Virus record (IMG/VR): IMGVR_UViG_2579778842_000017
Span: 1 to 64,000 of that record
Length of the DNA stretch: 64,000 nt
DNA from: a virus
Taxonomy: Duplodnaviria > Heunggongvirae > Uroviricota > Caudoviricetes
Direction: 5' to 3' (one strand)
The position numbers and the translations under genes were made by a program. Under the pieces are notes generated by a model. The model did no database searches and was not told where the DNA came from. It worked only from the letters and a program-made list of their open reading frames with translations. Positions 2,398 to 64,000 of the stretch are shown piece after piece (position 1 is the stretch's first letter; each line of letters opens with the position of its first letter).

Positions 2398-4098
2398 TTA
2401 TACAACTTTCCATTGCGCATCGCCGATCAGCCACGCATCAAACAAGCTCATATATCGAGCTCGCAAACGACAGACCTTGTAATCTTCCCCTACACCATCC
2501 AATGAGATCGGTTTACCCAAAAATGTAAGAGAGGTTAAATTTCTTCCCCGTAATATCAACTCGATTTCCTGCCCGTCATAAGCCTGCCCCTGAGTGGTAA
2601 TGTTTGCCCCGTTGGTTACTGGGATGTAAAACGAACTATGGCCGCTTCTTACCGGAACTGGTGCTGGTAATGTAATTGTGCGAATGTCATTTTCCAGACC
2701 ACTCACTACAGCACCACTCACATCACCGATTAGGGCGGTTAGGCGGTCGCGCTTATGCTCAATTGTTAAGCCTGAGTTGCTGCTGTCTGCATCATAAAAG
2801 CCAGTTGAACGATCTCCGCGTAGGTTTACGTTCATCACACGGCAGCCTGATGTGTTTTTTGCTCTGATGCAAACAGTGCCGCTTGTAGATGAGTGATGAG
2901 AACTGCTTACTAAAGCTCCCCTGGATGATGATAGATTGATATCCGCAATTTTACATGCCTCGTAATATGTATTCCCCATTAGCTCTGTTCCTATGGCCCC
3001 GTGATCCATAGTTCCATATCGTTCACAGTTCTGTATAAAACCACCATCTAAAACTACCGCCGTAGTGTTAAACGTTGTCGAATTATCGACATCAATTCCA
3101 TTCAACCCGTTTCTTATCACTAGGCCATAGTCAGGGAGGACGCCGCCTGGGTCACTACTGTATAAATTGGGATTGAGGATCTTGCAGGCATTAGCGCCAT
3201 TCTGATAGATAAGCCTCGTAGATCCTGTCCCACCATTCATTATTTCTGGATTGTCATTTTTAAGCCCGTAGCAAAGCAAGCCAACTCTCATGCCAACGCA
3301 GTCCCGGCCTAACTGCATATCTACCCACAATCCAAAAATGCCCGAGTTATTACGGCATTTGATTAAATCAATTCCGACAACTCCAGCCTTTCCGTTAAAA
3401 TCAATTCGAGGGTTATGCACCTGTATATTTCTAATATAATCAGTGCCAGCAACAGCTGGATCAGCTTTAAATAGCGTAATATTGTCTCTATTTGCATAAA
3501 AAATAGCGTCTCTTGACTGATGGATCGTTGTATTCCCGTAATAGTAATATGTTGCATCTACCGGATAAATTCCTGGCATGAAATAAATATCTCCACCAGA
3601 GCTCAGTAGCGACTGAATATCCGAGTGAGAATAACTTGGCTCAATGATAACGGCAGGTCGGGTTAGTTTTTTTGGAGCGTAGTCATCATAGATGCTTTGC
3701 CCACCCCATGAACTCCCTACTAATTTGTCCCCTCCAGAAGATGCCAATCTCTTCTCAAACTGATCGGGGTCATACTTCAGCACATTTGGGAATTTGAACT
3801 GCTGCGCCCCATATGCATCATAAACAGCCATAGAATGGCCTTGCACAGTTACGAATTTGGCAATCTGTCCGTTATATACAGGGTAACCAGCGGCGTTAAT
3901 GATGATTGGTTGCGAAACAGGAACGTGAGAACCGTCTTCATTCTCTACATAAACCTGAATCTGGTTTTCAGGATTTACAGGGTCAGTGTCAATTTTACCG
4001 ATATAAATTTTGCCATTGGCAACCGCTTTAAAAGAACGAGCCATAGTGAAGAGTTGCGAAGGCATCGATACAATCACATTAGCTGTAATGTCTGTCAT
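2398..4098 (-). CDS. Tailspike protein, P22-like N-terminal head-binding domain with divergent receptor-binding C-terminus
   Basis: 566 aa; N-terminus [82 protein letters not shown] matches the P22 gp9 head-binding domain. Confidence 0.85.
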
Positions 4099-4156
4099 TT
4101 AATTTGCTCCAGATACAATGAATCGCCGCAGCATGGCTACGGTGAATTTTGGGCAT

Positions 4157-4180: not shown

Positions 4181-4198
4181 CGTTGCGTTGGTTATCTG

Positions 4199-5100
4199 TC
4201 AGTAGTTATGTACTGAAGGAGGTAATTCTTTATTCTTAAGTCTCATCCATGCGGAAAGATTCGTTGGTCCGTCTGGCTCATTGATATCAACATCTCGTGT
4301 GTGGTTTATTAAAACGTCTCTCGCCATTCCGATAACATACGAGAATTCATGACCGTAGTCGTAGCATCTGCCGGAATAGTTCGATTGAATTTGTTTTAGC
4401 GCCGGATACAGTTCGCGGAATAATGCCTGTGAGCGGTTGGCATAATCCCATAACCATACAAGGCTGTTTGCTTCTTTTGCAGAAAGCTCGTTGGTTTTCT
4501 TCTCTTGTTTGCCAATGAACTCACCTTCAAGCACTACCCTGTGGATGTACTCTACTGCTTGTGGTATCTGAGATGCATCAAGCTCTTCAATACTTTCCAC
4601 ATTGAAACGCTGATGAATCATTGCATAAGCTTCTGGGTACATTAGATGCTTTTTGCTGACTAGCATATTTACAGCATCACGAAGCGGAGTCCTGTCATCA
4701 ACAGATGTTTTCTTCCGTGCATTTGCTGCCTCTCCCTTTGTCCAGTAGTCATGCAGCACAGTAAAGCATTCTTCCTGGTACTGAATCAGTTTATCGCGGA
4801 TGTCAGCACGAACTTTCTCAGGGTTGATGCTGAACAGCCATCCATTTAACTTCTTCAAAGGAAGGCAGAGTAGCTTACGAAGCTTACCATCAGCGGCAAC
4901 CATGTTCATATGAACACAGTTGAATTTGCTAATCTGCTTCATGAGTTTTGTTTGCTGCGTTGACCAGCTCATTCCGAGGTTTTCAACGATTGGCTTCATC
5001 GCAACATATGCAACTCCGGCAGCCATGGCGGTGATAATTTGCTGACCGTTGAATGGCACGTAAGAGGTGTTCACTGCTTCTAAAATTGCTATACTATTCA
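4199..5100 (-). CDS. ant: Antirepressor Ant (immI region)
   Basis: P22 Ant-like sequence starting [21 protein letters not shown]; position arc-ant-tailspike as in P22; ORF track extends to a GTG at 5167. Confidence 0.8.
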
Positions 5101-5333
5101 TGTTGGTTTTTCTCCACGGATTTACCGACAACCGAAGCCCTGACTGTTCCAGCAGTTGGGGCTTCACTGTTTTGATTTCTTTGCCGCATCAAGCATCACT
5201 TCTGAAAACGTGCGCTTGCCACTGAATACTCTTTCTCTTCTCAATTTTTCGTTCGTGCCAAATGATTCGCCATGAACAAAATTTGGTCTTAAAATGGTAA
5301 TCGCAATCTCTTTGACTACTGCATCCAAGCGAA

Positions 5334-7445: not shown

Positions 7446-7502
7446 TTCACATTTACTGCATTTTCGCCGAAGTTACCTATAAGGTAATGTCACATTTCCT
7501 GC
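7446..7502. repeat. Two direct copies of TCACATTT(A/C)CTGCA upstream of the Panacea operon
   Basis: copies at 7446-7459 and 7489-7502 in the AT-rich intergenic region; candidate operator sites. Confidence 0.4.
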
Positions 7503-32911: not shown

Positions 32912-33562
32912 ATGAAAACTCAATTGATGGGAGAGCGCATTCGCGCTCGGAGAAAAGAACTCAAGATCAGGCAGGCCGCACTTGGAAAGATGGTCGGCGT
33001 GTCTAATGTTGCCATATCTCAGTGGGAACGCTCTGAGACAGAGCCAAATGGAGAGAATCTTCTCGCCCTGGCTAATGCGTTGAAGTGTTCCCCTGACTAT
33101 CTGATGAAAGGAGAGGAAAGTCTTTCAAACATTGCCTATCACAGTAGGCATGATCCAAGAGGGTCATACCCTCTGATTAGCTGGGTGAGCGCAGGATGCT
33201 GGATGGAAGCTGTAGAACCATATCATAAGCGTGCAATAGATAACTGGTACGATACAACCGTAGACTGTTCAGAAGATTCGTTTTGGTTGGACGTGAAGGG
33301 AGACTCAATGACGGCTCCGGCCGGTCTCAGTATCCCTGAAGGAATGATAATACTCGTCGATCCTGAAGTAGAGCCGCGTAACGGGAAACTGGTAGTTGCA
33401 AAGCTCGAAGGAGAAAACGAGGCAACTTTCAAGAAGTTAGTTATTGATGCAGGCAGGAAGTTTCTAAAACCACTTAACCCACAATATCCGATGATCGAGA
33501 TCAACGGAAACTGCAAAATCATCGGCGTAGTTGTCGATGCAAAACTAGCAAACCTTCCATAA
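32912..33562 (+). CDS. c2: Prophage repressor C2 (P22 c2-type, LexA-like autocleavage domain)
   Basis: 216 aa MKTQLMGERIRARRKELKIRQAALGKMVGVSNVAISQWERSETEPNGENLLALANALKCSPDYL..., near-identical to P22 C2. Confidence 0.9.
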   Translation: MKTQLMGERIRARRKELKIRQAALGKMVGVSNVAISQWERSETEPNGENLLALANALKCSPDYLMKGEESLSNIAYHSRHDPRGSYPLISWVSAGCWMEAVEPYHKRAIDNWYDTTVDCSEDSFWLDVKGDSMTAPAGLSIPEGMIILVDPEVEPRNGKLVVAKLEGENEATFKKLVIDAGRKFLKPLNPQYPMIEINGNCKIIGVVVDAKLANLP

Positions 33563-36581: not shown

Positions 36582-37289
36582 ATGGATTTGAACAAATTCG
36601 ATGAGCCATTCAGCCCTGAAGATATCGAATGGCGAATACAGCAAAGCGGTAAAACACGCGATGGCAAGGTGTGGGCTATGGTGCTGGCTTATGTCACGAA
36701 CCGGGCAATCATGAAACGCCTGGACGATGTTTGCGGCAAAGCAGGATGGCGCAATGAATACCGCGATATTCCCAACAACGGCGGCGTTGAATGCGGCATA
36801 TCAATCAGGATTGATTCCGAATGGGTAACCAAATGGGATGCTGCTGAAAACACGCAGGTAGAAGCCGTCAAAGGTGGTCGTTCAGGTGCAATGAAGCGTG
36901 CTGCCGTTCAGTGGGGAATCGGTCGGTATCTGTATAACCTTGAGGAAGGTTTCGCACAAACATCTCTTGATAAAAAGCATGGGTGGCACAGGGCAAAACT
37001 GAAGGATGGAACAGGATTTTACTGGCTCCCTCCATCGCTGCCGGTATGGGCAATCCCAGCATCAGATAACAAACCATCACCAGAAAATACCAACCAGAAA
37101 TCTCCATCGGTTGACTGCGAACAAATCCTGAAAGACTTCAGCGATTATGCGTCAACAGAAACTGACAAGAAAAAACTCATCGAGCGTTATCAGCGTGACT
37201 GGCAATTAATGGCTGGCAACGAGGAGGCGCAGGCTAAATGCGTTCAGGTAATGAACATCAGAGTTAACGAACTAAAACAGGCGGCATAA
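36582..37289 (+). CDS. Rad52-like single-strand annealing protein (Sak/Erf-type recombinase)
   Basis: 235 aa with GISIRIDSEW ... AVQWGIGRYLY motif; directly upstream of ssb. Confidence 0.7.
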   Translation: MDLNKFDEPFSPEDIEWRIQQSGKTRDGKVWAMVLAYVTNRAIMKRLDDVCGKAGWRNEYRDIPNNGGVECGISIRIDSEWVTKWDAAENTQVEAVKGGRSGAMKRAAVQWGIGRYLYNLEEGFAQTSLDKKHGWHRAKLKDGTGFYWLPPSLPVWAIPASDNKPSPENTNQKSPSVDCEQILKDFSDYASTETDKKKLIERYQRDWQLMAGNEEAQAKCVQVMNIRVNELKQAA

Positions 37290-37763
37290 ATGGCAAGCAG
37301 AGGCGTAAATAAGGTGATCATTATTGGTCGCCTTGGGCATGATCCAGAAATCAGATATTCACCATCAGGAACGGCATTTGCAAACCTTACAGTTGCTACG
37401 TCAGAACAATGGCGTGATAAGCAAACTGGAGAGCAAAAGGAGCAGACGGAGTGGCACCGCGTGGTAATGAGCGGAAAACTGGCAGAAATTGCCGGCGAAT
37501 ATCTGCGAAAAGGCTCTGAGGTTTATCTTGAAGGAAAATTGCGGACAAGAAAATGGCAGGATCAAAGCGGACAGGAGCGGTTCACTACCGAAGTCATCGT
37601 GGGCGTTGGTGGAACCATGCAAATGCTTGGTGGCAAGCAAGGAGGCAATGAACAGTCTTCACCTCAGCGAAATAACGGTCAGCAACAAAGGCAGCAACCT
37701 CAGCAGCAGGGAAATCACAGCGAACCACCTATGAACTTCGACGATTCGGATATTCCGTTCTAG
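37290..37763 (+). CDS. ssb: Single-stranded DNA-binding protein
   Basis: OB-fold N-terminus [23 protein letters not shown], Gly/Gln-rich linker, acidic tail DDSDIPF. Confidence 0.9.
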
Positions 37764-37772
37764 GAGCTGAAT

Positions 37773-38252
37773 ATGAAAATCTGCTCAAGATGCCATCAAC
37801 AGAAGGAAGAAAGGGACTTTCAAATCAGAAGAGCATCCAGAGATGGATTAACTGCCGCTTGCCGGGCTTGCCTGGCTGAATACGACAAAGAGCGCGCGGG
37901 ATTGCCACATCGAGTATCAGCAAGGAGAGAATATCAATCATCGGAACGCGGCAGAGAACGGTGTAACGCAGCCAAAAAGCGGTTCATTCAGAGCAACCCA
38001 TGGAAAAGAAAAGCCCACATCATTGTGGGTAATTTTTTGCGCGACGGTAAGCTAATCCGACCACCACAATGTGAGTGCTGCGGATCAGAATGTAAACCAC
38101 AGGCGCACCACTGCGATTACAGTAAACCTCTTGAAGTGATGTGGCTATGCAAAGCATGTCATGTTGAATGGCACAAGCACAACAAGCCAATATATCCAGA
38201 CGAGGAACCAGTAACTCTCCCCTTCCCTCGTCACGCTATTCACGCAATTTAA
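37773..38252 (+). CDS. HNH endonuclease with N-terminal zinc ribbon
   Basis: CxxC ... AHHCDYSKPLEVMWLCKACHVEWH. Confidence 0.65.
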   Translation: MKICSRCHQQKEERDFQIRRASRDGLTAACRACLAEYDKERAGLPHRVSARREYQSSERGRERCNAAKKRFIQSNPWKRKAHIIVGNFLRDGKLIRPPQCECCGSECKPQAHHCDYSKPLEVMWLCKACHVEWHKHNKPIYPDEEPVTLPFPRHAIHAI

Positions 38253-38260
38253 GGACTTAC

Positions 38261-38809
38261 ATGAATCACTTGATGGTTGACCTTGAAACAATGGGCAACG
38301 GGCCATACGCGCCAGTTATTTCTATTGGGGCGGTGTTCTTTGACCCGAATACCGGAGAAACAGGAGAAGAGTTCTCGGTAAATATCTCGCTTGAGTCATC
38401 AATGCGATATCGGGCGCGTCCTGACGCTTCAACGATTTTATGGTGGATGGAACAGAGTGAAGAAGCCAGAAAATCGCTAACCAGCAACACTCAGGAGCTT
38501 TCAACGGCTCTTTCATGGTTATCTGAATTCATCATAAAGAACGCTAACCACAAATTCGTTCAGGTTTGGGGGAATGGAGCATCATTTGACTGCGTTATTC
38601 TCCGCAACAGTTATTCGCTGACAGGGCAGCCAGTTCCGTGGCAGTGGTGGAATGACCGCGACGTAAGAACAATCGTCGAGCTTGGAAAGGTAATAGGATT
38701 TGACCCTAAGCGAGATATGCCATTCAAAGGAACTCGCCACAACGCGCTTGATGATGCCATCCACCAAGCCAAATACGTTTCAGCAATCTGGAAAAAATTA
38801 GCTAAATAA
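38261..38809 (+). CDS. 3'-5' exonuclease (DnaQ-like DEDDh)
   Basis: MNHLMVDLETMG, later HNALDDA motif. Confidence 0.75.
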   Translation: MNHLMVDLETMGNGPYAPVISIGAVFFDPNTGETGEEFSVNISLESSMRYRARPDASTILWWMEQSEEARKSLTSNTQELSTALSWLSEFIIKNANHKFVQVWGNGASFDCVILRNSYSLTGQPVPWQWWNDRDVRTIVELGKVIGFDPKRDMPFKGTRHNALDDAIHQAKYVSAIWKKLAK

Positions 38810-38825
38810 TCAACAGGAGAAAAAC

Positions 38826-39122
38826 ATGCCAGCGCCTCTGTATGGTGCGGATGACCCGCGCCGCTGTTCCGGCAATTCCATATCGGAGGTGCTGGATAAA
38901 TTCAGAAAAAACTACGATCGGATAATGTCGCTACCGCAGGAAACGAAAGAGGAAAAGGAATTTCGCCACTGTATATGGCTTGCAGAGAAAGAAGAACACG
39001 AGCGAATTTACCAGACATCAATCCGACCATTCCGCAAAGCCACATATACCCACTTCCCTGAATATATCGACCCGCGCCTGCGTAATTACCGCTCACGCTA
39101 TGGCGCTATCAGTAATGACTGA
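38826..39122 (+). CDS. Hypothetical protein
   Basis: 98-aa ORF with RBS, early-left operon. Confidence 0.5.
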
Positions 39123-39132
39123 GGAATTTACC

Positions 39133-39300
39133 ATGAGAGGACTTGCATACAATCCCGGCATTCTTCCGGCAGAAATGATTATTCGCCAACGCGTAAAGCC
39201 AATGCCATCGAGAGAGGAATTGCTTAAGAGAAAGAGTTTCGGTTCTGTTAATGACAACAAATATCTGAATGCGATGTGGCGCAAAGGAGGCAACCAGTGA
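39133..39300 (+). CDS. Small hypothetical protein
   Basis: 55-aa [22 protein letters not shown] with GAGG RBS. Confidence 0.35.
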
Positions 39301-39551
39301 GTAATTCAGCACGACTACAGCTTGGTTTTTCACCGCTATCAAAAACTATCATGCTGGCAAAAATGCGCGATGTTGAAGGTGGACGTATGCGCGTTGGCAA
39401 TGATCCAGGTCGTGATGTTACCAATGAGGCTGCTCAATTGGTGTGGCGACTGGTCATGGCTGAAGGTGGTGAGATCGCGTGGGAGCTGGATGATGGTTCT
39501 CGCATGGTGTTGAAGGCAGAAAAGCAGGAGGCAACCAGTGAGCCAGATTGA
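39276..39551 (+). CDS. Hypothetical protein (start uncertain)
   Basis: 91-aa ORF, stop overlaps next gene. Confidence 0.35.
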
Positions 39552-40353
39552 TTATCAGGCACTGCGTGCTAAGGCAGAAAAAGCAACGTGTGGCGAGTGG
39601 TCGCTCGAATATGGAGAGGGCCGATTTGATGGTGATGATGCGCTAATTCATCGCGAGGCTGCTGGATATATTCCCATTTGCAGAATTGAAGGAGCGCATC
39701 CAGAAAGCGGTTTCGATGAAGATTTCCAAATGGAACAGCAGGCCAATGCTGAATTCATCGCCGCAGCCAATCCGGCTACCGTCTTGGCGCTGCTGGATGA
39801 GCTGGAAAGAAAACAGCAATACATCAAACGCCGTGACCAGGAGAACGAGGATATTGCTCTTACGGTTGGGAAGCTGAGAGTTGAGCTTGAGGAAGTAAAA
39901 CAACACGCTGAAGAATTATCCGAAACCAAGGCTGTTCGTAACCAATGGCGACCAGATATTTGCCCAATAACCGGACGTGCATTTTTCATGTGGATTGAGC
40001 ATCCAACATTGGGGAATGTGCCGACATATGGTGGCCCATTAGATAGTTACACCATTCCAACAAAGGACGGTGACGGTGAGTTTTCATGTGAGCGTTACGA
40101 TCATGATTTTGGCGGTTGGGTAGAAAGCGAATGTCTTGGGTTATATCTGATTGATGATAGAGAACAATGCAGGGTCTACGAACTGGAGGAACACGTTAAG
40201 GAACTGGATGCTCGGGAAATATCGCTCCCGGAACGTAGCAGCATGCTTCATCGAACAGATTTTCACGATGATTACCAAACGGTAATGGCATACAAAGTTT
40301 CTGAAGTCATCGCTGCAATCCGCGCCGCAGGCATTCGCATCAAAGGAGAGTGA
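39538..40353 (+). CDS. Ead/Ea22-like protein
   Basis: 271 aa; ALRAKAEKATCGEWSLEYG ... ANAEFIAAANPATVLALLDELE. Confidence 0.65.
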   Translation: MSQIDYQALRAKAEKATCGEWSLEYGEGRFDGDDALIHREAAGYIPICRIEGAHPESGFDEDFQMEQQANAEFIAAANPATVLALLDELERKQQYIKRRDQENEDIALTVGKLRVELEEVKQHAEELSETKAVRNQWRPDICPITGRAFFMWIEHPTLGNVPTYGGPLDSYTIPTKDGDGEFSCERYDHDFGGWVESECLGLYLIDDREQCRVYELEEHVKELDAREISLPERSSMLHRTDFHDDYQTVMAYKVSEVIAAIRAAGIRIKGE

Positions 40354-41412: not shown

Positions 41413-41762
41413 TGGACTATTCACAGTTAAGTGATTTTGAAATTAACAGAATGGTAGGAGACATAATTTTTAAAGGCCTTTGGGCATGTAAACCGGAAAC
41501 ATCAGGGAATAACACCAACAAATGGTATTACGGAAATGCTGATACAACTTTTGAGCCATTAAACCCTTTACCTGACTACTGCAATAATCCATCGGATGCA
41601 TGGCCTATTATTGTTGATAATAAAATCAGTCTAACCTGCCACCAATCTCGCGGTGAGTGGTCAGCTGTTTTTAATGCCGAGAACATTTGCTTTCATGCGA
41701 ATAATCCACTCCGAGCCGCCATGATTGTATTTCTCATGATGCAGGAAAATCAGAATGGCTAA
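41409..41762 (+). CDS. NinX/DUF2591-like protein, paralog of 27088-27456
   Basis: [13 protein letters not shown] ... [19 protein letters not shown]; same termini as the nin-region copy. Confidence 0.6.
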   Translation: MMDYSQLSDFEINRMVGDIIFKGLWACKPETSGNNTNKWYYGNADTTFEPLNPLPDYCNNPSDAWPIIVDNKISLTCHQSRGEWSAVFNAENICFHANNPLRAAMIVFLMMQENQNG

Positions 41763-42093
41763 ATCAGCAGCAGAGCGCAAAGCCGCTCAGAGAGCCAGAC
41801 AAGCTGCATCTGGTGTGCGTAAGCTGGAGATTGTGCTTGATGCTCAGGAAATTGAAATGCTGGAGCGTAACTGTGCCACGCGTCGCCCCGGGCGTGCGCC
41901 TTACGAATTTGGTGAGTATATAGCGTTACTGATCCGCCAGGATGATGCACGCGTGCACGGGCGTATAAAATCGATCAGCAGAAAACGTTGCGGTAAGTGC
42001 GGCGAGAGAGTTCCTGTGAATTCATGCCCGTGTAATGGTGACTCGCAATGCTGGGTGACTAAAGGCTGGCATGAAACGAAATTAATAGTGTGA
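41755..42093 (+). CDS. Small basic protein with C-terminal Cys cluster (zinc-finger-like), last gene before the second terminase
   Basis: 112 aa; basic helical N-terminus, CGKCGERVPVNSCPCNGDSQC; stop codon lies inside the GTGACATGTCAC palindrome. Confidence 0.5.
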   Translation: MAKSAAERKAAQRARQAASGVRKLEIVLDAQEIEMLERNCATRRPGRAPYEFGEYIALLIRQDDARVHGRIKSISRKRCGKCGERVPVNSCPCNGDSQCWVTKGWHETKLIV

Positions 42094-42168: not shown

Positions 42169-42211
42169 GCATGGTACTATTACCACAACGGTAACTATTA
42201 CCACGGTGGTT

Positions 42212-42808
42212 ATGATGCCTGCTGAACCTAAAACCTATAAACGCAAATCAACGCAATTTAAGCCACTAACAGCAATGCAGGAGGCTTATTGCCAGTCATA
42301 CATCAAAACGCCTGAAAACCAGACTCAGGCAGCGATTAACGCAGGATTCTCCCCAAATACAGCGGCAGTTAAAGCCAGTGTCATGATGCGCGATGAACGC
42401 ATTCAAAAACGGATTGCCGAGCTGATGGAGGAGCGCAACAAACGAATGCGCGTCAGTGCTGATTACGTTCTCATGCGCCTGGTGGAGATCGACCAGATGG
42501 ACGTGATTGATATCCTCAACGACGATGGGAGTCTTAAGCCAATCCGCGAGTGGCCGAAAATCTGGCGCACTACGCTTAGTGGCTTTGATCTGTCATCGAC
42601 CATCATGAACATGAACGAGGATTCGATAGAGACAATCCTCAAAAAAATTAAATGGCCTGACAAGATGAAGAACCTCGAACTGATTGGTAAGCACGTCGAC
42701 GTTAACGCGTTCAAAGAGCGCCTGGAGGTTTCCGGCACGGTCACCATCGCCGACCGCATGGCCGCCGCCCGGCGCCGCGTCATAGAGCAGGCTGGTGGTG
42801 AAGAATGA
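42212..42808 (+). CDS. Terminase small subunit (second virion module)
   Basis: about 200 aa from MMPAEPKTYKRK, directly upstream of and overlapping TerL; ORF track extends to a TTG at 42134. Confidence 0.7.
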   Translation: MMPAEPKTYKRKSTQFKPLTAMQEAYCQSYIKTPENQTQAAINAGFSPNTAAVKASVMMRDERIQKRIAELMEERNKRMRVSADYVLMRLVEIDQMDVIDILNDDGSLKPIREWPKIWRTTLSGFDLSSTIMNMNEDSIETILKKIKWPDKMKNLELIGKHVDVNAFKERLEVSGTVTIADRMAAARRRVIEQAGGEE

Positions 42809-44280
42809 CAGCCGCAGCCATGTCGCCGGAAGAGCAACTCGTCGAGGATATCGCCTCGTTCACGTATGACCCGCTGGGCTATGCGCTGTATGCGTTTCCG
42901 TGGGGCGAGGAAGGCACAGAGCTGGCGCACGCCACCGGTCCGCGTAAGTGGCAGGCAGACGCATTCCGCGAGATACGCGATCACCTGCAGAACCCGGCGA
43001 CGCGTCACCAGCCGTTGATGCTGGCCCGCGCATCCGGCCACGGCATCGGCAAGTCAGCTTTCATCTCAATGCTGATTAACTGGGGCATGTCCACTTGCGA
43101 GGATTGTAAGGTCGTGGTGACCGCCAACACCGACAACCAGCTACGAACGAAGACCTGGCCGGAAATTATCAAGTGGTCGAACCTTGCTATCACGAAAGAC
43201 TGGTTTACCTGTACCGCTACCGCGATGTACAGCAATGACCCTGGGCACGACAAGCGGTGGCGAGCTGACGCAATCCCCTGGTCTGAGCACAACACTGAGG
43301 CATTCGCCGGATTACACAATGAGCGCAAACGCATCATCGTGGTATTCGATGAAGCGTCGAACATTGCGGATCTGGTGTGGGAAGTTGCTGAGGGTGCGCT
43401 TACGGACGAAGACACTGAGATTATCTGGGTGGCGTTCGGAAACCCGACACGTAACACCGGGCGTTTCCGCGAATGTTTCCGCAAATATAAACACCGCTGG
43501 AAAACTGCACAGATTGACAGCCGGACGGTGGAAGGTACTAACAAGCAGCAATTACAGAAATGGGTTGATGACTACGGGGAAGACAGCGACTTCGTTAAAG
43601 TCCGTGTGCGCGGCATATTTCCTGATGCATCTGAATTGCAGTTTATCCCTACCGGTCTTACTGACGAGGCAATGAAACGGGTGGTAACTGCTGCGCAGGT
43701 GGCACATGCTCCGGTGATAATCGGCGTTGACCCGGCATACTCCGGCGTTGATGACGCTGTGATATACCTGCGGCAGGGGCTGCACAGTAAGGTGCTGTGG
43801 ACTGGCAACAAGACCACTGACGATCTGATAATGGCGAAGCGTATCGCTGACTTTGAAGACCAGTACCAGGCTGACGCAGTGTTCATCGACTTCGGTTACG
43901 GAACCGGTCTGAAATCAATCGGTGACGGATGGGGTCGTACATGGCAACTTGTTCCGTTCGGTGGCGCGTCTACTGACCCGCAGATGCTCAACAAGCGTGG
44001 GGAGATGTTCAACTCATGCAAGACATGGCTGAGGCTGGGCGGCATGCTGGATGACCAGGAAACAGCGGACGACCTGTCTGCGGCAGAGTACAAAGTTCGA
44101 GTGGACGGTAAAATCGTTATCGAACCGAAGGAAGATATCAAGGAGCGGCTTGGGCGTTCGCCTGGTAAAGGCGATGCGCTACTGCTGACGTTTGCTTTCC
44201 CGGTGTCAAAGCGCCTGCGACTTCCCGGGCAGCAGAACCAGCAAGGCAAGGCCATCACAGATTACGATCCCTATGCTTAA
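42805..44280 (+). CDS. Terminase large subunit (second virion module)
   Basis: 491 aa; Walker A-like ARASGHGIGKS, nuclease-like C-terminal half. Confidence 0.85.
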   Translation: MTAAAMSPEEQLVEDIASFTYDPLGYALYAFPWGEEGTELAHATGPRKWQADAFREIRDHLQNPATRHQPLMLARASGHGIGKSAFISMLINWGMSTCEDCKVVVTANTDNQLRTKTWPEIIKWSNLAITKDWFTCTATAMYSNDPGHDKRWRADAIPWSEHNTEAFAGLHNERKRIIVVFDEASNIADLVWEVAEGALTDEDTEIIWVAFGNPTRNTGRFRECFRKYKHRWKTAQIDSRTVEGTNKQQLQKWVDDYGEDSDFVKVRVRGIFPDASELQFIPTGLTDEAMKRVVTAAQVAHAPVIIGVDPAYSGVDDAVIYLRQGLHSKVLWTGNKTTDDLIMAKRIADFEDQYQADAVFIDFGYGTGLKSIGDGWGRTWQLVPFGGASTDPQMLNKRGEMFNSCKTWLRLGGMLDDQETADDLSAAEYKVRVDGKIVIEPKEDIKERLGRSPGKGDALLLTFAFPVSKRLRLPGQQNQQGKAITDYDPYA

Positions 44281-44330
44281 TCCGCTTGAGGGGATAATGT
44301 CGTTGATATCCTCTGATGAGGATAAAACAA

Positions 44331-44354
44331 AGCCAGCTCATAGGCTGGCTGTTT
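44331..44354 (+). terminator. Rho-independent terminator after TerL
   Basis: AGCCAGCTCATAGGCTGGCT followed by GTTTGTG. Confidence 0.5.
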
Positions 44355-44366
44355 GTGATATGTCAC
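44355..44366. repeat. Palindrome GTGATATGTCAC (copy 2, one mismatch)
   Basis: immediately after the TerL terminator. Confidence 0.5.
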
Positions 44367-44370
44367 GGTG

Positions 44371-44742
44371 TTATTGCTCGCTTAACTTCTGCTTCAGCAA
44401 GTAACCTTCAAGCATCCAGATTTTGTTTACAGCATTCTGTCGGGCAATCTTCCGACCAATTTCTGCATCAAAGTTTTCCGGGCTTGCACAGGCGCTCTCT
44501 CCGGTGACGGTGAAGCCGTTGCGCAGCACCAGGACGCAGAACGTCAGCAGAGAAAGTGATTCGTGCGGCTGGTAGTTTACCTCTCCGCCAGTATGTTTCG
44601 CTTTTATGGCTACGCCAAAGGCACCATCTTCTGCTGTGAAATATGCCTCCTGAGCAATAATGCTCTCGATATGGTCTGGCGTAACGCGCGGCGCGGCTAA
44701 ACCTTTAGCCTGAATTTCAGATTCAATGTCTTTGTCACTCAT
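44371..44742 (-). CDS. Hypothetical moron protein between terL and portal
   Basis: 123-aa minus-strand ORF inserted in an otherwise plus-strand virion operon. Confidence 0.6.
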   Translation of the reverse strand: MSDKDIESEIQAKGLAAPRVTPDHIESIIAQEAYFTAEDGAFGVAIKAKHTGGEVNYQPHESLSLLTFCVLVLRNGFTVTGESACASPENFDAEIGRKIARQNAVNKIWMLEGYLLKQKLSEQ

Positions 44743-44943
44743 AGTCTAATCTCACCTTAAAAATGCCCGGCGAACCGGGCGAACTGGAAGCAATGAGTTA
44801 TGCCTTCCGTGGCTGTACGGGTTTACAGCATGAAGTCATCGCAATGGCGTCCTGCTGTAAAAAGGGCGGTGATAGTCCTTCAAGGGAAACCATCACCGCC
44901 AAGCCCCTGGAACTTCTGGCATCACGGTCCTTAGGCGTGATTC

Positions 44944-45020
44944 TGGCGTGGCATGCAGGATTCGAACCTGCGACCAACCGCTTAGAAGGCGGTTGCTCTG
45001 TCCGACTGAGCTAATGCCAC
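44944..45020 (-). tRNA. Phage-borne tRNA-Arg (anticodon UCU)
   Basis: minus strand reads GTGGCATTAGCTCAGTCGGACAGAGCAACCGCCTTCTAAGCGGTTGGTCGCAGGTTCGAATCCTGCATGCCACGCCA: 7-bp acceptor stem, anticodon loop CTTCTAA, 3' CCA. Confidence 0.8.
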
Positions 45021-45447
45021 AACGCTGAGAGCACTTAGCCTGTTAAGGCACCACACTTTGTCGCGGCTCCATAAATGCTCTCATCGTTGTACCCTCGTCT
45101 CTTCCGAGGCGTCACACCGAATCGCCGGGATGGTGAATCCCCGTGCGCGGCATAAAACCGCTCGACTTGCACATTCCGGCTACCTGGTTCGTTTGCCCGA
45201 GCAAGGGAGGGTGCCCCTTAAACGTATCCAGACCGCTATCGGCGCATGTGCCATACGCCGTACTGCTCAAAATAAAAGCTCACTCCACCTGTTCAATTTA
45301 ACGACAAGCCAGTCAGGTTAATAACAGGAATGCACTCTATGCTTACCTGAAAGGTAATAATTCGTGCGTTAAATGTCAACTACCTACGATAAATAAATCA
45401 TATGTGGTTAAATTGGTAATAATTTAATTGCGTACGGAGTCATTGAT

Positions 45448-45654
45448 ATGTGCATGGGTAGCTCACCATCAGTGCCTGCAACACCAGAAGTTCAGGCAGC
45501 ACCACAGGAGCAGGATGCCGCCGTTGTTGATGCCCGCGACGAAGAAACTCGTCGCCGTCGCGCTGCTGCTGGTCGTAGTTCTACGCTGCTTACCGGTTCT
45601 CAGGGCGACACATCAACCGCTAATACCAGCGGTAAAACGCTGCTTGGTCAGTAA
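45448..45654 (+). CDS. Small hypothetical protein upstream of portal
   Basis: 68 aa; GGAGTCATTGA-ATG initiation region nearly identical to that of the portal gene. Confidence 0.4.
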   Translation: MCMGSSPSVPATPEVQAAPQEQDAAVVDARDEETRRRRAAAGRSSTLLTGSQGDTSTANTSGKTLLGQ

Positions 45655-45668
45655 CCGGAGTCATTGAA

Positions 45669-47348
45669 ATGGCGGAAACAACTAAAGAGCGATTGAACAA
45701 ACAGTTCGCACAACTTGAAAGCGAGCGTCAGTCGTTCGAGCCGCACTGGCGCGAGTTGAGTGATTACATCAACCCGCGTGGTTCCCGCTTTCTGACTTCT
45801 GAGGTCAACCGTAACGATCGACGCAATACACGCATTATTGATTCGACCGGGACTATGGCGGCGCGCACTCTCGCCAGCGGCATGATGTCAGGCATCACAA
45901 GCCCCGCGCGTCCGTGGTTTCGCCTGGCTACGCCAGATCCTGAAATGATGGATTATGGCCCTGTTAAGTTGTGGCTTGAGGCGGTGCAGAACCGCATGAA
46001 CGATATGTTCAATAAGTCGAATCTCTATCAGTCGCTGCCGCAGTTATACGGAAGCCTCGGCACATACAGCACTGGTGCAATGGCAGTGCTGGAGGATGAC
46101 GAGGACATCATTCGCACAATGCCATTCACGATAGGCAGTTACTACCTGGCTAACTCACCTCGTGGCAGTGTGGACACCTGTTTTCGCAAGTTCTCTATGA
46201 CTGTTCGTCAGCTTGTTCAGGAGTTCGGGCTAAATAACGTCAGCGAATCCGTAAAAAGCATGTGGGAAAGCGGCACCTACGAGAAGTGGATTGAAGTGAT
46301 GCATTCGGTTTACCCGAACATTGACCGCGATACATCGAAGCTGGATAGCAAGAACAAGCCATTCAAATCGGTTTATTACGAGGTTGGTGGCGATAACGAC
46401 AAGTTGTTGCGTGAGTCCGGATTCGATGAGTTTCCAATTATGGCTCCGCGCTGGGAAGTTAACGGCGAAGATGTTTATGGATCATCATGCCCGGGCATGC
46501 TGGCGCTTGGACCTGTTAAGGCATTGCAGCTTCTCCAGAAGCGCAAGTCGCAGTTGATTGATAAAGCCACCAATCCGCCGATGGTTGCTCCGATTTCCCT
46601 CAAGAATCAGCGTGCCTCCCTTCTTCCTGGCGACATCACGTATATCGATCAGATTACTGGTCAGGATGGTTTCAGGCCTGCTTATCTGGTTAACCCCAGT
46701 ACAGCAGATTTGGTGGCAGACATTCAGGACACTCGTCAAATCATTAACAGCGCCTACTTTGTCGATCTGTTCATGATGTTGCAGAACATCAATACCCGCT
46801 CGATGCCTGTTGAAGCGGTGATCGAAATGAAAGAAGAAAAACTTCTGATGTTGGGGCCGGTTCTGGAGCGTCTGAACGACGAATGTCTTAATCCTCTCAT
46901 TGACCGCGCTTTCTCGATGATGGTGCGTAAAAACATGTTGCCGCCACCGCCTGACGCGATGGAAGGCATGCCCCTGAAGGTCGAATACATTTCCGTCATG
47001 GCTCAGGCGCAGAAGTCTATCGGCCTGTCCAGTCTGGCGTCCACGGTTAACTTCATTGGTCAACTTGCGCAAGCGAAACCAGAAGCTCTCGACAAACTCA
47101 ACGTTGATCAGGCGATCGATGCATTCGCTGATATGTCCGGAGTGTCTCCAACCGTCATTGTTCCGCAGGAACAGGTTGAGCAGGCTCGCCAGCAACGGGC
47201 ACAGCAACAACAGCAGCAACAAATGATGGCCATGGGGATGGCGGCGGCACAGGGTGCCAAGACGCTAAGCGAAGCTAAAACTTCGGATCCGAGTGTTTTG
47301 TCAGCTATGGCGAATGCAGTTAGTGGTCAGGGTGGGCAATCACAATGA
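45669..47348 (+). CDS. Portal (head-tail connector) protein, T7-supergroup-like
   Basis: 559 aa; C-terminal QQQQQQMMAMGMAAAQGAKT...AMANAV resembles T7 gp8 C-terminus; follows TerL. Confidence 0.75.
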   Translation: MAETTKERLNKQFAQLESERQSFEPHWRELSDYINPRGSRFLTSEVNRNDRRNTRIIDSTGTMAARTLASGMMSGITSPARPWFRLATPDPEMMDYGPVKLWLEAVQNRMNDMFNKSNLYQSLPQLYGSLGTYSTGAMAVLEDDEDIIRTMPFTIGSYYLANSPRGSVDTCFRKFSMTVRQLVQEFGLNNVSESVKSMWESGTYEKWIEVMHSVYPNIDRDTSKLDSKNKPFKSVYYEVGGDNDKLLRESGFDEFPIMAPRWEVNGEDVYGSSCPGMLALGPVKALQLLQKRKSQLIDKATNPPMVAPISLKNQRASLLPGDITYIDQITGQDGFRPAYLVNPSTADLVADIQDTRQIINSAYFVDLFMMLQNINTRSMPVEAVIEMKEEKLLMLGPVLERLNDECLNPLIDRAFSMMVRKNMLPPPPDAMEGMPLKVEYISVMAQAQKSIGLSSLASTVNFIGQLAQAKPEALDKLNVDQAIDAFADMSGVSPTVIVPQEQVEQARQQRAQQQQQQQMMAMGMAAAQGAKTLSEAKTSDPSVLSAMANAVSGQGGQSQ

Positions 47349-62725: not shown

Positions 62726-62872
62726 TGCTTGGCTTGTTCATTGTGCTGAGTACGATTTTTCAACGCTGTCATATCGCGCCTCCTTTACCTTTAAGGTAAT
62801 AGTACGCTATTCACCCACAGTCTGCAATCTGTACAGAATTATTTAAAGGCACATCCCTGTGCCGCCGTTCTG

Positions 62873-63598
62873 TCAGAAGAACCCTGCCTTGTCGTTGATG
62901 TACTCCGCGTGCGTCTGGATATCACGCAGGCATTTGCTCACACCGACGATGTAGCAGAACATGGTGGTCAGCTCCGCCGCCGCGCCAGATACGTCGTGCC
63001 CGTCGTCCTGCAACTGGTTCAGCAGATTCATCAGCAGTGAGTTCTCCGTCAGGCCGAGAACACCAGACGGCGAGTGAATCAGGCTGCGGTAGCCGGGCTT
63101 CAGTGGGGCACTGTAGGTTTTGTTCTCTATCTTCATTGCCTGTATTACTGCTGACGCCGTGGCGTTGGCTACCTGGTCGGCAACCATCTTTATGCGTTCT
63201 TCCTGCGGGAGCGAGTCTTTAATGTAACTTCCGGTGCGGCGGATCTGAGGAAGAACCTCACCTGTAACCCATTTACGAAAGCGGTAGGGGATAGTGCCTG
63301 GTGTCACCGCATCGCGGCAGCGGAGGATCAGTGTGTAGAGGCCTGACTCGGAGATGATGTTGAGCTCTTTTACTCGGCTATCAAAAATTGCACGATGTTC
63401 ATGCCCTATGTTGAACATAGACCTTTCATCATCATCCAGTTTTTCAAGTGATTGGGTGACGTTTTGGATACGCAGCGCACTACAAACGTCTTGGGCTACA
63501 AACCATGGTTGGCCATCGATAATGATGGAACGGATAGGGTTAACAGATTCAAATTTGAAGATGGCAGTTTGAGCATTAGCCATGGTGGTTATCTCCAC
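62873..63598 (-). CDS. Bro-N domain protein (antirepressor-like)
   Basis: N-terminal FESVNPIRSIIIDGQPWFVAQDVCSAL ... LPQIRRTG matches the Bro-N domain; start likely MANAQTAIF. Confidence 0.65.
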   Translation of the reverse strand: MEITTMANAQTAIFKFESVNPIRSIIIDGQPWFVAQDVCSALRIQNVTQSLEKLDDDERSMFNIGHEHRAIFDSRVKELNIISESGLYTLILRCRDAVTPGTIPYRFRKWVTGEVLPQIRRTGSYIKDSLPQEERIKMVADQVANATASAVIQAMKIENKTYSAPLKPGYRSLIHSPSGVLGLTENSLLMNLLNQLQDDGHDVSGAAAELTTMFCYIVGVSKCLRDIQTHAEYINDKAGFF

Positions 63599-64000
63599 TT
63601 AGTGATTTTAATCACCACCGCAACGCCAATTACTGGTGGTGAACTGGACAAGGTTGGCGTACCGGCCTAAGTGGTACCGGCGTCCTTTCGGACCCCTGCC
63701 CAGCCCACCATAATTCGGATATGGCTGTGCTTAACGCATAAAAAAACCACGTCTGGCGTGGTATGCGCCACTTAGTAACTCGGGACGCCAATCCCGGCAC
63801 TGGATTTTTCCAGTGCCCGATTACTATGGCACAAGAGGAGTGCGATGTAAATTTACCGCAAAGGTAAATATAAGCACTCCACTTGGTAATTGCAAACCTT
63901 ATCTGGTTTGTTTTCGTAATTGTTCGGCACAATAGTCGAGATGTGTTTGCAGATCCCGCATAGACATCTGTGAGCTGGTGACGTAGTTAATCAGTGCAGT

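Follow-up and report, generated by a model that had tools for sequence, protein, structure and literature searches.

What separates the terminase gene from the portal gene in an E. coli prophage of the phiV10/epsilon15-like type (Uetakevirus)? We analysed positions 1 to 64,000 of IMG/VR record IMGVR_UViG_2579778842_000017, a 64,000-nucleotide (nt) stretch hereafter called the window, in which the segment 44281-45668 is exactly the 1388-base-pair (bp) interval between terL and the portal gene. An earlier account made from the letters alone, hereafter the sequence-only reading, saw here a moron insertion carrying a minus-strand gene and a tRNA, and passed over the 427-nt stretch 45021-45447. We find that this stretch contains a conserved structured RNA, and that the segment is a conserved leftward accessory module, not a recent insertion, in which the cargo gene alone is exchanged. 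On balance, we consider it reasonably probable that the whole is a conserved module uniting this RNA, whose action in cis is a more tentative part of the proposal, with a tRNA-Arg and an Acb4-family cargo gene.

More tentatively, we propose that the RNA may be the first representative of a class of pseudoknotted phage RNAs that has so far gone undescribed. The class would span unrelated temperate enterobacterial phages (P1 and P1-like plasmids, SSU5-like phage-plasmids, N-less lambdoids and Uetakeviruses) and would head repressor-controlled early operons with tRNAs and anti-defence sponge genes. Its members would act either as protein-independent processive antiterminators or as RNAs that neutralise a host factor.

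A conserved pseudoknotted RNA adjoins the tRNA gene

The first 241 nt beside the tRNA are 83% identical to unannotated DNA of the unrelated lambdoid phages cdtI, mEp460, Ayreon, 2H10, phiSTEC1575, 1720a-02 and Stx2c phages. In the RNA alignment, long invariant blocks such as GGUAGCCGGAAUGUGCAAG stand between hairpins that carry compensatory changes. The parts of the RNA are as follows.

45086-45260, minus strand: RNA core (covariance model 145.9 bits, E 8e-42)
45240-45260, minus strand: hairpin P1, within the core and followed by P2
45167-45183, minus strand: the invariant 17-mer GGUAGCCGGAAUGUGCAAG, within the core
45127-45141, minus strand: hairpin H4, whose CACC loop pairs with a downstream GGUG at 45115-45118 (pairing PK1)
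45093-45109, minus strand: hairpin H5, within the core
45021-45089, minus strand: domain P6, a 16-bp closing helix (5' strand 45074-45089, 3' strand 45020/21-45035) around a variable insert, its 3' end abutting G1 of the tRNA

An exact scan of viral contigs with the 17-mer returned at least 119 loci, which together with reference loci gave at least 110 unique variants in 44 clusters at 93% identity. We drew a structure by hand, comprising P1, P2, H4 with its CACC/GGUG pairing, H5 and a loop-to-GUGC pairing, and tested it on a 24-sequence alignment of the core. In this alignment 95.4% of cells were paired and 12 pairs had changed on both sides, a result that none of 500 shuffles reached. When the 3' partners were slid by 1-3 columns as a control, 24-45% of cells paired. 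An independent set, made up of phage P1 and prophages of Kosakonia, Phytobacter, Citrobacter, Kluyvera, Klebsiella, Enterobacter, Superficieibacter, Pseudescherichia, Escherichia and Candidatus Erwinia, behaved in the same way (96% paired, 10 compensatory pairs, 0 of 500 shuffles).

Individual pairings tell the same story. One pseudoknot pair changes jointly from C-G to A-U in the lambdoid lineage, and the G-U pairs fit the minus strand only. P6 occurs as 22 distinct strand pairs, every one of which can form 14-17 bp with compensatory changes, around an insert of 44-133 nt; G1 of the tRNA takes part in its last base pair. Conservation is higher in the unpaired columns than in the paired ones, with about 50 unpaired positions invariant. 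The block 45021-45260 on the minus strand is a pseudoknotted structured RNA of about 240 nt with strong covariation.

No family in Rfam 15 covers this RNA, whether at the gathering threshold or more permissively, either in the window (E up to 10) or at the phage P1, cdtI, L092 and SPN1S loci (E up to 1); the matches obtained were tRNA, C4, isrK or chance. A sub-threshold STnc100-like match lies at 1675-1794 of the phage P1 locus (L135). Searching open-access papers by topic and by literal sequence turned up no description of the RNA. A preprint on the prophage small RNA Pas and a paper on a '50 genomes' motif were checked and proved unrelated. None of the RefSeq rows inspected carries an annotation over it, and catalogues of K-12 small RNAs are of no help because the K-12 prophage CPS-53, which has yfdP/Q/R, lacks the RNA.

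The RNA recurs in unrelated temperate phages

By blastn, the core is present in 1840 of 5426 complete E. coli genomes (34%), at 2473 places, 554 of them on plasmids. A conserved, covariation-backed RNA without an Rfam 15 match thus sits in a third of these genomes and in the model phage P1. Pattern matches outside the enterobacteria (Pirellulaceae, Clostridia, Bacteroidota, Acidovorax and others) failed the covariance model and are chance.

In the lambdoid phages, the RNA lies directly downstream of PL, beside the cI repressor gene and on the PL-transcribed strand, which corresponds to the tRNA strand of our segment. PL and the RNA are followed by about 100 nt bounded by GUUGUGGUG and CACCACAAC, a strong terminator (dG -19 to -22), YfdP-like, DUF2303/YfdQ and YfdR-like genes, and xis. 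The terminators lie 280-300 nt downstream and precede all early-left genes. According to the describers of SfIV, phages SfII, SfV and SfIV lack N, cII and cIII (PMC3851460).

Phage P1 (NC_005856) places the RNA in an unannotated 286-nt gap, 71009-71294, between trnI (tRNA-Ile2) and ban, where the covariance model scores 135.5 bits at 71024-71204. This gap belongs to the ban operon, which is under control of the C1 repressor and in which a dicF-like region, trnA, trnT and tciABC are also found; P1-like plasmids carry the RNA too. SSU5-like phage-plasmids show the order tRNA array, tRNA(CAT), RNA, Tad2-like gene.

Uetakeviruses arrange an operator-bearing control region, the RNA, tRNA-Arg (or none), a conserved hairpin, the strong terminator, a second hairpin and the cargo. 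The window conforms: its minus strand reads the ~240-nt RNA (45260 to 45021), tRNA-Arg(UCU), the strong terminator, the second hairpin, the cargo gene and a bidirectional terminator held in common with terL. The interval and its borders contain the following features, where aa stands for amino acids and ORF for open reading frame.

42805-44280, plus strand: terL, ending 1 nt before the segment
44331-44350, both strands: bidirectional intrinsic terminator ending terL (plus) and the minus-strand cassette; a terminator scan finds a hairpin and T-run on each strand, and the phiV10 annotation has a terminator at the same place
44371-44742, minus strand: 123-aa cargo ORF, Pfam PF13876 (formerly Gp49/Sf6 gp66), Acb4 family
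44765-44780, minus strand: GC hairpin with UUCG loop and U-run, terminator-like, directly upstream of the ribosome-binding site of the cargo gene; kept in epsilon15 and annotated there as a rho-independent terminator
44865-44900, minus strand: strong intrinsic terminator downstream of the tRNA (14-bp stem, CUUUUU tail, dG -22)
44921-44941, minus strand: hairpin AUCACG-CCUAAGGAC-CGUGAU between tRNA and terminator, also found in Uetakevirus-type loci L072, L141 and L012
44944-45020, minus strand: tRNA-Arg, anticodon TCT, with encoded CCA
45343-45357, both strands: palindrome TTACC-N5-GGTAA, operator-like, within the divergent control region that separates the RNA from gp3
45448-45654, plus strand: 68-aa gp3-like ORF, homologue of epsilon15p03 (phrog_831, PHROG E 2.4e-36), a core gene just upstream of the portal gene
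45669-47348, plus strand: portal gene (PF12236, E 1.9e-186)

Counterparts of the strong terminator at 44865-44900 follow the RNA in lambdoid and other Uetakevirus loci. Repressor control is given by annotation for the ban operon of phage P1, and by position or annotated operators for the lambdoid PL and Uetakevirus units. The units often adjoin tRNAs and carry accessory or anti-defence genes. The RNA itself is present once in the window and once in the whole cdtI genome. Elsewhere, L031 alone has a tandem pair about 800 nt apart (3993-4152 and 4800-4957), L141 has a partial copy upstream of its full copy at 4195-4355, and a Phytobacter ursingii genome holds three copies (L139, L161, L162).

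Epsilon15 keeps the 5' end of the RNA alone (39.6 bits). Its cargo gene is intact, but the remainder of the RNA is missing, together with the tRNA and the 5' half of the strong terminator. When its locus (L004, 2583-2721) is set against window positions 44865-45226, the loss has the look of one deletion event between two UUCCCUUGAUGCU copies, of which the first lies in the distal hairpin of P2 and the other in the terminator loop.

The palindrome TTACC-N5-GGTAA has five exact copies in the window (7473-7487, 42180-42194, 45343-45357, 62785-62799 and 63853-63867) versus less than one expected. The equivalent sites of epsilon15 are annotated as repressor-binding, and 110 bp flanking the copy at 45343-45357 are kept in all Uetakeviruses. 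A candidate promoter seen by eye, TTGAAC-N16-TATTTT, is weak and ends about 10 nt before hairpin P1. From this arrangement we infer that transcription starts in the control region, under repressor control. No sigma-70-like promoter passed the scan threshold in 44100-45800, which counts against the explanation as a whole.

How the RNA might act

Our tentative preference, over a trans-acting RNA, is that the RNA is a cis-acting leader for terminator read-through (antitermination). The unit would be transcribed on infection or induction, and RNase P cleavage would separate the RNA from the tRNA. Because G1 of the tRNA abuts the closing helix, the same cut would also set the 3' end of the RNA. Acting in cis on the polymerase or the transcript, in the manner of the HK022 put element, the RNA would bring about read-through of the terminators between it and the cargo. 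The tRNA would supplement AGA decoding in early-right, tail, lysis and accessory genes, and the Acb4 homologue would sequester the cyclic dinucleotides of CBASS (cyclic-oligonucleotide-based anti-phage signalling system).

Four observations lead us to favour read-through. The RNA is the sole conserved element between PL and the strong terminator in N-less lambdoids. Uetakeviruses repeat the order RNA, terminator, cargo, and the promoter scan found no sigma-70-like site between the terminators and the cargo gene. Epsilon15 lost RNA and terminator together. Finally, two variants have a canonical boxA in place of P6: in L092 (~3330-3400) and L050 (~2220-2300; both in RNA-sense coordinates), a short hairpin and a perfect rrn-type boxA (GCTCTTTAACAA) replace the domain in a nut/rrn-like arrangement. 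We also considered a boxA reading of the 3' strand of P6 itself, which is weakened by the base pairing of that strand within P6.

Several observations weigh against read-through. In phage P1, the promoter Pban is 2.3 kb upstream of the RNA, which follows trnI directly and stops about 60 nt short of ban; no terminator is predicted after the RNA in the phage P1 and SSU5-like contexts. Unlike putL/putR, it has no second copy in the rightward operon, as judged from the window and the cdtI genome. The tRNA or acceptor-like helix that flanks the RNA fits the excision of a discrete stable RNA, and the strong terminator may simply end a stable-RNA gene.

These last points lead to the strongest competitor, a discrete stable RNA that works in trans. 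Enzymes of tRNA processing would cut it out of the early transcript, and its target would be some host factor, such as a protein of defence or RNA metabolism that it decoys or inhibits; the terminator would then just end the RNA/tRNA gene. We judge this rather unlikely. In its favour, the 3' end of the RNA abuts G1 of a tRNA in 30 of 133 loci, and in P1-type loci tRNA-Ile2 ends about 17 nt before the RNA. In 50 of the 71 unique tRNA-less loci (L005, L007, L012, L072, L141 and others), the GUUGUGGUG that follows P6 is complementary to a CACCACAAC lying some 100 nt further downstream (92-130 nt after P6), and no locus needs more than 1 mismatch. The resulting helix resembles an acceptor stem, sometimes with a T-arm-like hairpin, and occupies the slot of the tRNA-Arg at 44944-45020. 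With its conserved single-stranded blocks and its pseudoknots, the RNA looks like a fold that binds a ligand or a protein, and it recurs beside the anti-defence genes Acb4 and Tad2. Since three unrelated phage types share the RNA, its partner would probably be a host component. On the other side, the RNA always lies upstream of the cargo genes and in their orientation, as a cis element would, and the phage P1 version lacks a defined 3' end signal. We note separately that a conserved GCUGUGUGUAGUCUUGG precedes the terminator in several lineages.

Less probable still is a cis leader of another kind. It might be a scaffold at the 5' end on which the stability or processing of the downstream tRNA or mRNA depends, or a sensor resembling a riboswitch that tunes expression of the early accessory operon. 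Such a leader would suit the 5'-proximal position in three operon types. Alternative pairing is possible through a GUUG common to P6 and the downstream CACCACAAC helix, and RNAalifold offers an alternative long-range pairing of GCACAU with AUGUGC. However, there is no conserved expression platform, the downstream elements vary (tRNA, ban, small ORFs), Rfam gives no riboswitch matches, and a plain stabiliser would not need some 50 invariant unpaired positions.

If read-through is the correct reading, it would explain delayed-early expression without N in SfV/cdtI-type lambdoids, a gap noted by their describers. It would also supply a read-through element that is portable and needs no factor, so that HK022 put would be joined by a second and much larger solution. 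A trans-acting RNA would instead represent a new kind of early RNA in phages.

The interval is a fixed slot with exchangeable cargo

The segment is 98% identical to phiV10 across its entire length and is present at full length in 223 complete E. coli genomes; in E. coli UMNK88 (NC_017641) the RNA core is 100% identical. For an unbiased set of relatives, we took the best 80 viral contigs by portal match, all with at least 99% portal identity, of which 79 include the end of terL. Among these 79 the terL-portal gap spans 1044-2207 bp and is never empty. It holds the tRNA in 78 and the RNA 17-mer in 76; gp3 is always present, with no exception noted. A wider set of 38 Uetakevirus loci, chosen by presence of the RNA, has the tRNA in 23 and gp3 in all 38. 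In each of the eight reference Uetakeviruses (phiV10, O157 typing phage 9, TL-2011b, epsilon15, SPN1S, Tyrion, PAT1 and Klebsiella ST512-KPC3phi13.3), the interval contains a cassette on the minus strand. No empty site, with terL adjoining the portal gene, occurs among the 79 portal-selected contigs, the 38 wider loci or the eight reference genomes.

Cargo behaves differently. It is an Acb4 homologue in 37 of the 79 portal-selected contigs, at 60-100% identity despite near-identical portals, and other proteins fill the slot in the remaining 42. From the counts in both sets it follows that the framework (control region, RNA, tRNA, gp3) is conserved and the cargo exchanged.

These comparisons bear on the sequence-only reading, which had proposed comparison with relatives lacking the insert and had held that conservation in all relatives would speak against it. 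No such relative was found, and conservation largely holds for the RNA, tRNA and gp3, the cargo ORF alone being variable. Its moron description survives as to opposite strand, accessory content and an end at a bidirectional terminator, but not as to an interrupted 'usual adjacency'. Every feature it listed (the 123-aa ORF, the tRNA, the 68-aa ORF and the repeated initiation region) was found where it had placed them. Taken whole, its account is of a recent simple moron of gene plus tRNA, with the tRNA serving late genes and the small ORF arising by local duplication. We regard this as very improbable. In its favour, the unit is on the opposite strand with its own terminator and accessory content, and AGA codons are present in tail genes. 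Against it stand the lack of any relative with an empty site, the absence of AGA codons from head genes, a shared initiation region of merely 12 nt that is lineage-specific, and a conserved RNA that it ignores. Rather than an insertion, the terL-gp3 interval appears to be a fixed hot-spot for accessory or anti-defence genes.

Finally, there is next to no chance that the block 45021-45260 is protein-coding: ORFs are annotated over it in mEp460, Ayreon, phiSTEC1575 and Tyrion and an antisense frame is often open, but coding is ruled out by core lengths of 149-180 nt that fall in all three mod-3 classes, variable columns without 3-periodicity, compensatory substitutions across helices, and unpaired positions that are the most conserved.

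An Acb4-family gene fills the slot in the window

The 123-aa protein matches PF13876 over profile positions 1-82 of 82 (E 2.4e-35, 121.3 bits against a cut-off of 27). The profile search that the sequence-only reading had suggested thus gave a family-level function, Acb4. By phmmer, residues 67-108, including an EIGR motif, match PDB 9E4W, the anti-CBASS 4 protein of phage SPO1 (E 0.0068). NCBIfam and PADLOC gave no match for either the 123-aa or the 68-aa protein. PF13876 has been defined as the Acb4 family of tetrameric cyclic-dinucleotide sponges (bioRxiv 10.1101/2024.12.30.630793), and all eight PF13876 homologues tested bound 3'3'-cGAMP (10.1101/2024.12.30.630793).

The ligand contacts listed for SPO1 are K36, F48, E49, V56, Y57, F62, N63, I66, T70 and K81. 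F48, F62 and I66 are kept as F77, F91 and I95. On the other side, E49, V56, Y57 and T70 are changed to T78, C85, A86 and I99; K36 and K81 fall outside the aligned stretch. We predict from the family assignment that the 123-aa protein is a cyclic-dinucleotide sponge, whose ligands may differ from those of SPO1 Acb4 given the partly conserved contacts.

Alternative cargoes include a second anti-defence family. A Tad2-like protein (PF11195) is the cargo of the Klebsiella phage (E 4e-26) and of a single phiV10-like contig (E 1.9e-24); SSU5-like phage-plasmids likewise have a Tad2-like gene, placed after the RNA. Among the portal-selected contigs (L166-L245), the slot from terL to the tRNA also holds uncharacterised families of 140 aa (15 contigs), 310 aa (9), 113 aa (3), 115 aa and 99 aa. 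The 115-aa protein is a repeat protein also present in TL-2011b, and the 310-aa protein has by eye a transmembrane and a coiled-coil region. We consider these families candidate anti-defence or exclusion genes. Such turnover is, to judge from the sequences, the signature of an anti-defence hot-spot. By themselves a tRNA and an Acb4-family gene are ordinary; with the cargo turnover they would mark the terL-gp3 junction as a fixed anti-defence slot, and a good place to seek new counter-defence genes, for example the 140-aa, 113-aa and 310-aa families.

A non-host tRNA-Arg and the AGA codons it may serve

The sequence-only reading called the tRNA well formed and different from host argU, and both points hold. 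ARAGORN folds it into a cloverleaf, and Rfam tRNA (RF00005) scores it at 73.3 bits against a gathering score of 29. By our own count, about 63 of 77 positions are identical to K-12 argU, with differences in the acceptor and anticodon stems. Arginine identity rests on A20, C35, U36/G36 and a purine at 73; read from the alignment with K-12 argU, this tRNA has A20, C35, U36 and G73. These features indicate that the tRNA is real and non-host.

The proposal that it supports late genes did not survive codon counting. E. coli uses AGA sparingly, roughly twice per 1000 codons. Genes from terS through 49829, head genes included, contain none. In the window, AGA reaches 5.5 per 1000 over all late genes and 20.6 in genes upstream of terS; in phiV10, it reaches 13.1 in early-right genes, 10.3 in tailspike, oac, lysis and int, and 3.3 in early-left genes. 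The genes enriched in AGA are thus those of the early-right group (13-21 per 1000) and those with tail, lysis and accessory functions (~10 per 1000). It is plausible that the tRNA benefits the early and accessory genes rather than late genes at large. This benefit is reckoned against E. coli frequencies taken from general background, which tells against this part of our explanation.

An 83-aa ORF at 44763-45014 on the plus strand, annotated PhiV10p04, is the antisense of the tRNA-Arg and its flank. The family phrog_4647, which it matches (E 8e-53), appears to be built on this antisense-ORF artefact.

A shared translation start precedes gp3 and the portal gene

The 68-aa gp3-like protein has no Pfam match. 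Its gene and the portal gene share an initiation region, which was first taken to suggest a local duplication.

45436-45446 (gp3) and 45657-45667 (portal), plus strand: Shine-Dalgarno sequence and spacer GGAGTCATTGA, an 11-mer with exactly two copies in the window, each 1 nt before an ATG

The identity is real, extending over 12 nt plus ATG. The duplication finds no similarity beyond it, and the match is lineage-specific. In the phiV10 group, gp3 and portal both have CGGAGTCATTGA, one variable base and ATG, and Tyrion has ACGGAGTCATTG, with a different spacer end, at both. Epsilon15, SPN1S and PAT1 share ACGGAG alone, and the Klebsiella phage shares nothing. On these alignments, the repeat is a common Shine-Dalgarno sequence and spacer, not a duplicated gene segment.

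Genomic setting of the window

The window begins with argW (1009-1083) and int (1209-2393), followed by P22-like late, lysis and replication genes on the minus strand (2398-32537) and an S24/HTH repressor gene (32912-33562). Plus-strand Rad52, SSB, exonuclease and Ea22 genes (36582-40353) run straight into the Uetakevirus terS (42134). This early region matches phiV10 only at 41755-42093 and in a short Ea22 piece. No second argW attachment copy occurs within the 64,000 nt, and the arrangement represents either tandem or recombinant prophages. One TTACC-N5-GGTAA copy falls in the P22-like half, a hint that the two prophage parts may share immunity or engage in cross-talk.

Known small RNAs are also present. 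The first prophage part has, at 5102-5168, the sar RNA, which controls ant in P22. C4 antisense RNA and an isrK-like RNA (63632-63715; 63740-63816) lie beside a Bro-N antirepressor gene (62873-63598) in the Uetakevirus part. Phage cdtI also has the isrK and C4 pair.

Comparison with known systems

A first parallel is HK022 put. Like putL and putR, the RNA described here is a structured RNA just downstream of PL in N-less lambdoids, upstream of terminators that precede the early genes; the loci of cdtI, mEp460, Ayreon, phiSTEC1575, 1720a-02 and Stx2c phages all share this location. Whereas put is a two-stem-loop element of about 70 nt, our RNA measures 160-240 nt, has two pseudoknot-type pairings and shares neither sequence nor structure homology with it. 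In HK022, our covariance model (R1) gives just two matches of at most 6.6 bits, in the tail-gene region at 11.3-12.1 kb, which amounts to no homology. The RNA also differs from put in occurring as one copy per phage, not as a left/right pair, and in being found in phage P1 and podoviruses as well. One account describes put RNAs as acting in cis (PMC9378689); for our RNA, read-through is predicted by position.

Likeness to the nut and rrn boxA-boxB sites is narrower. The 3' strand of P6 contains a boxA-like UGCUCUY, and the two variants described above place a hairpin and a perfect GCUCUUUAACAA where P6 would stand. A functional boxA is single-stranded, whereas the strand in question is mostly paired within P6, and no N gene is present.

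As in the morons of the Hendrix type, an opposite-strand accessory unit with its own terminators (44331-44350, 44865-44900) sits between two morphogenesis genes. In contrast to them, no relative lacks the unit, and a fixed framework carries exchanged cargo.

The 123-aa protein resembles SPO1 Acb4 (9E4W) in its full-length match to the family model, its direct sequence match, its phage origin and its adjoining of other sponge families in equivalent slots. It differs in a 60-residue N-terminal extension and in the replacement of E49 by T, Y57 by A and T70 by I; its tetramer and its ligand binding are predicted at the level of the family.

Lastly, phage-borne tRNA genes such as trnA, trnT and trnI of phage P1 or ileZ-argN-argO of Stx phages likewise supply, within an early or accessory transcript, an intact tRNA for a codon rare in the host and overused by the phage. 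Unlike these, the tRNA-Arg of this module is fused head-to-tail to a conserved structured RNA, and it stands in a slot that in relatives holds a tRNA-acceptor-like helix.

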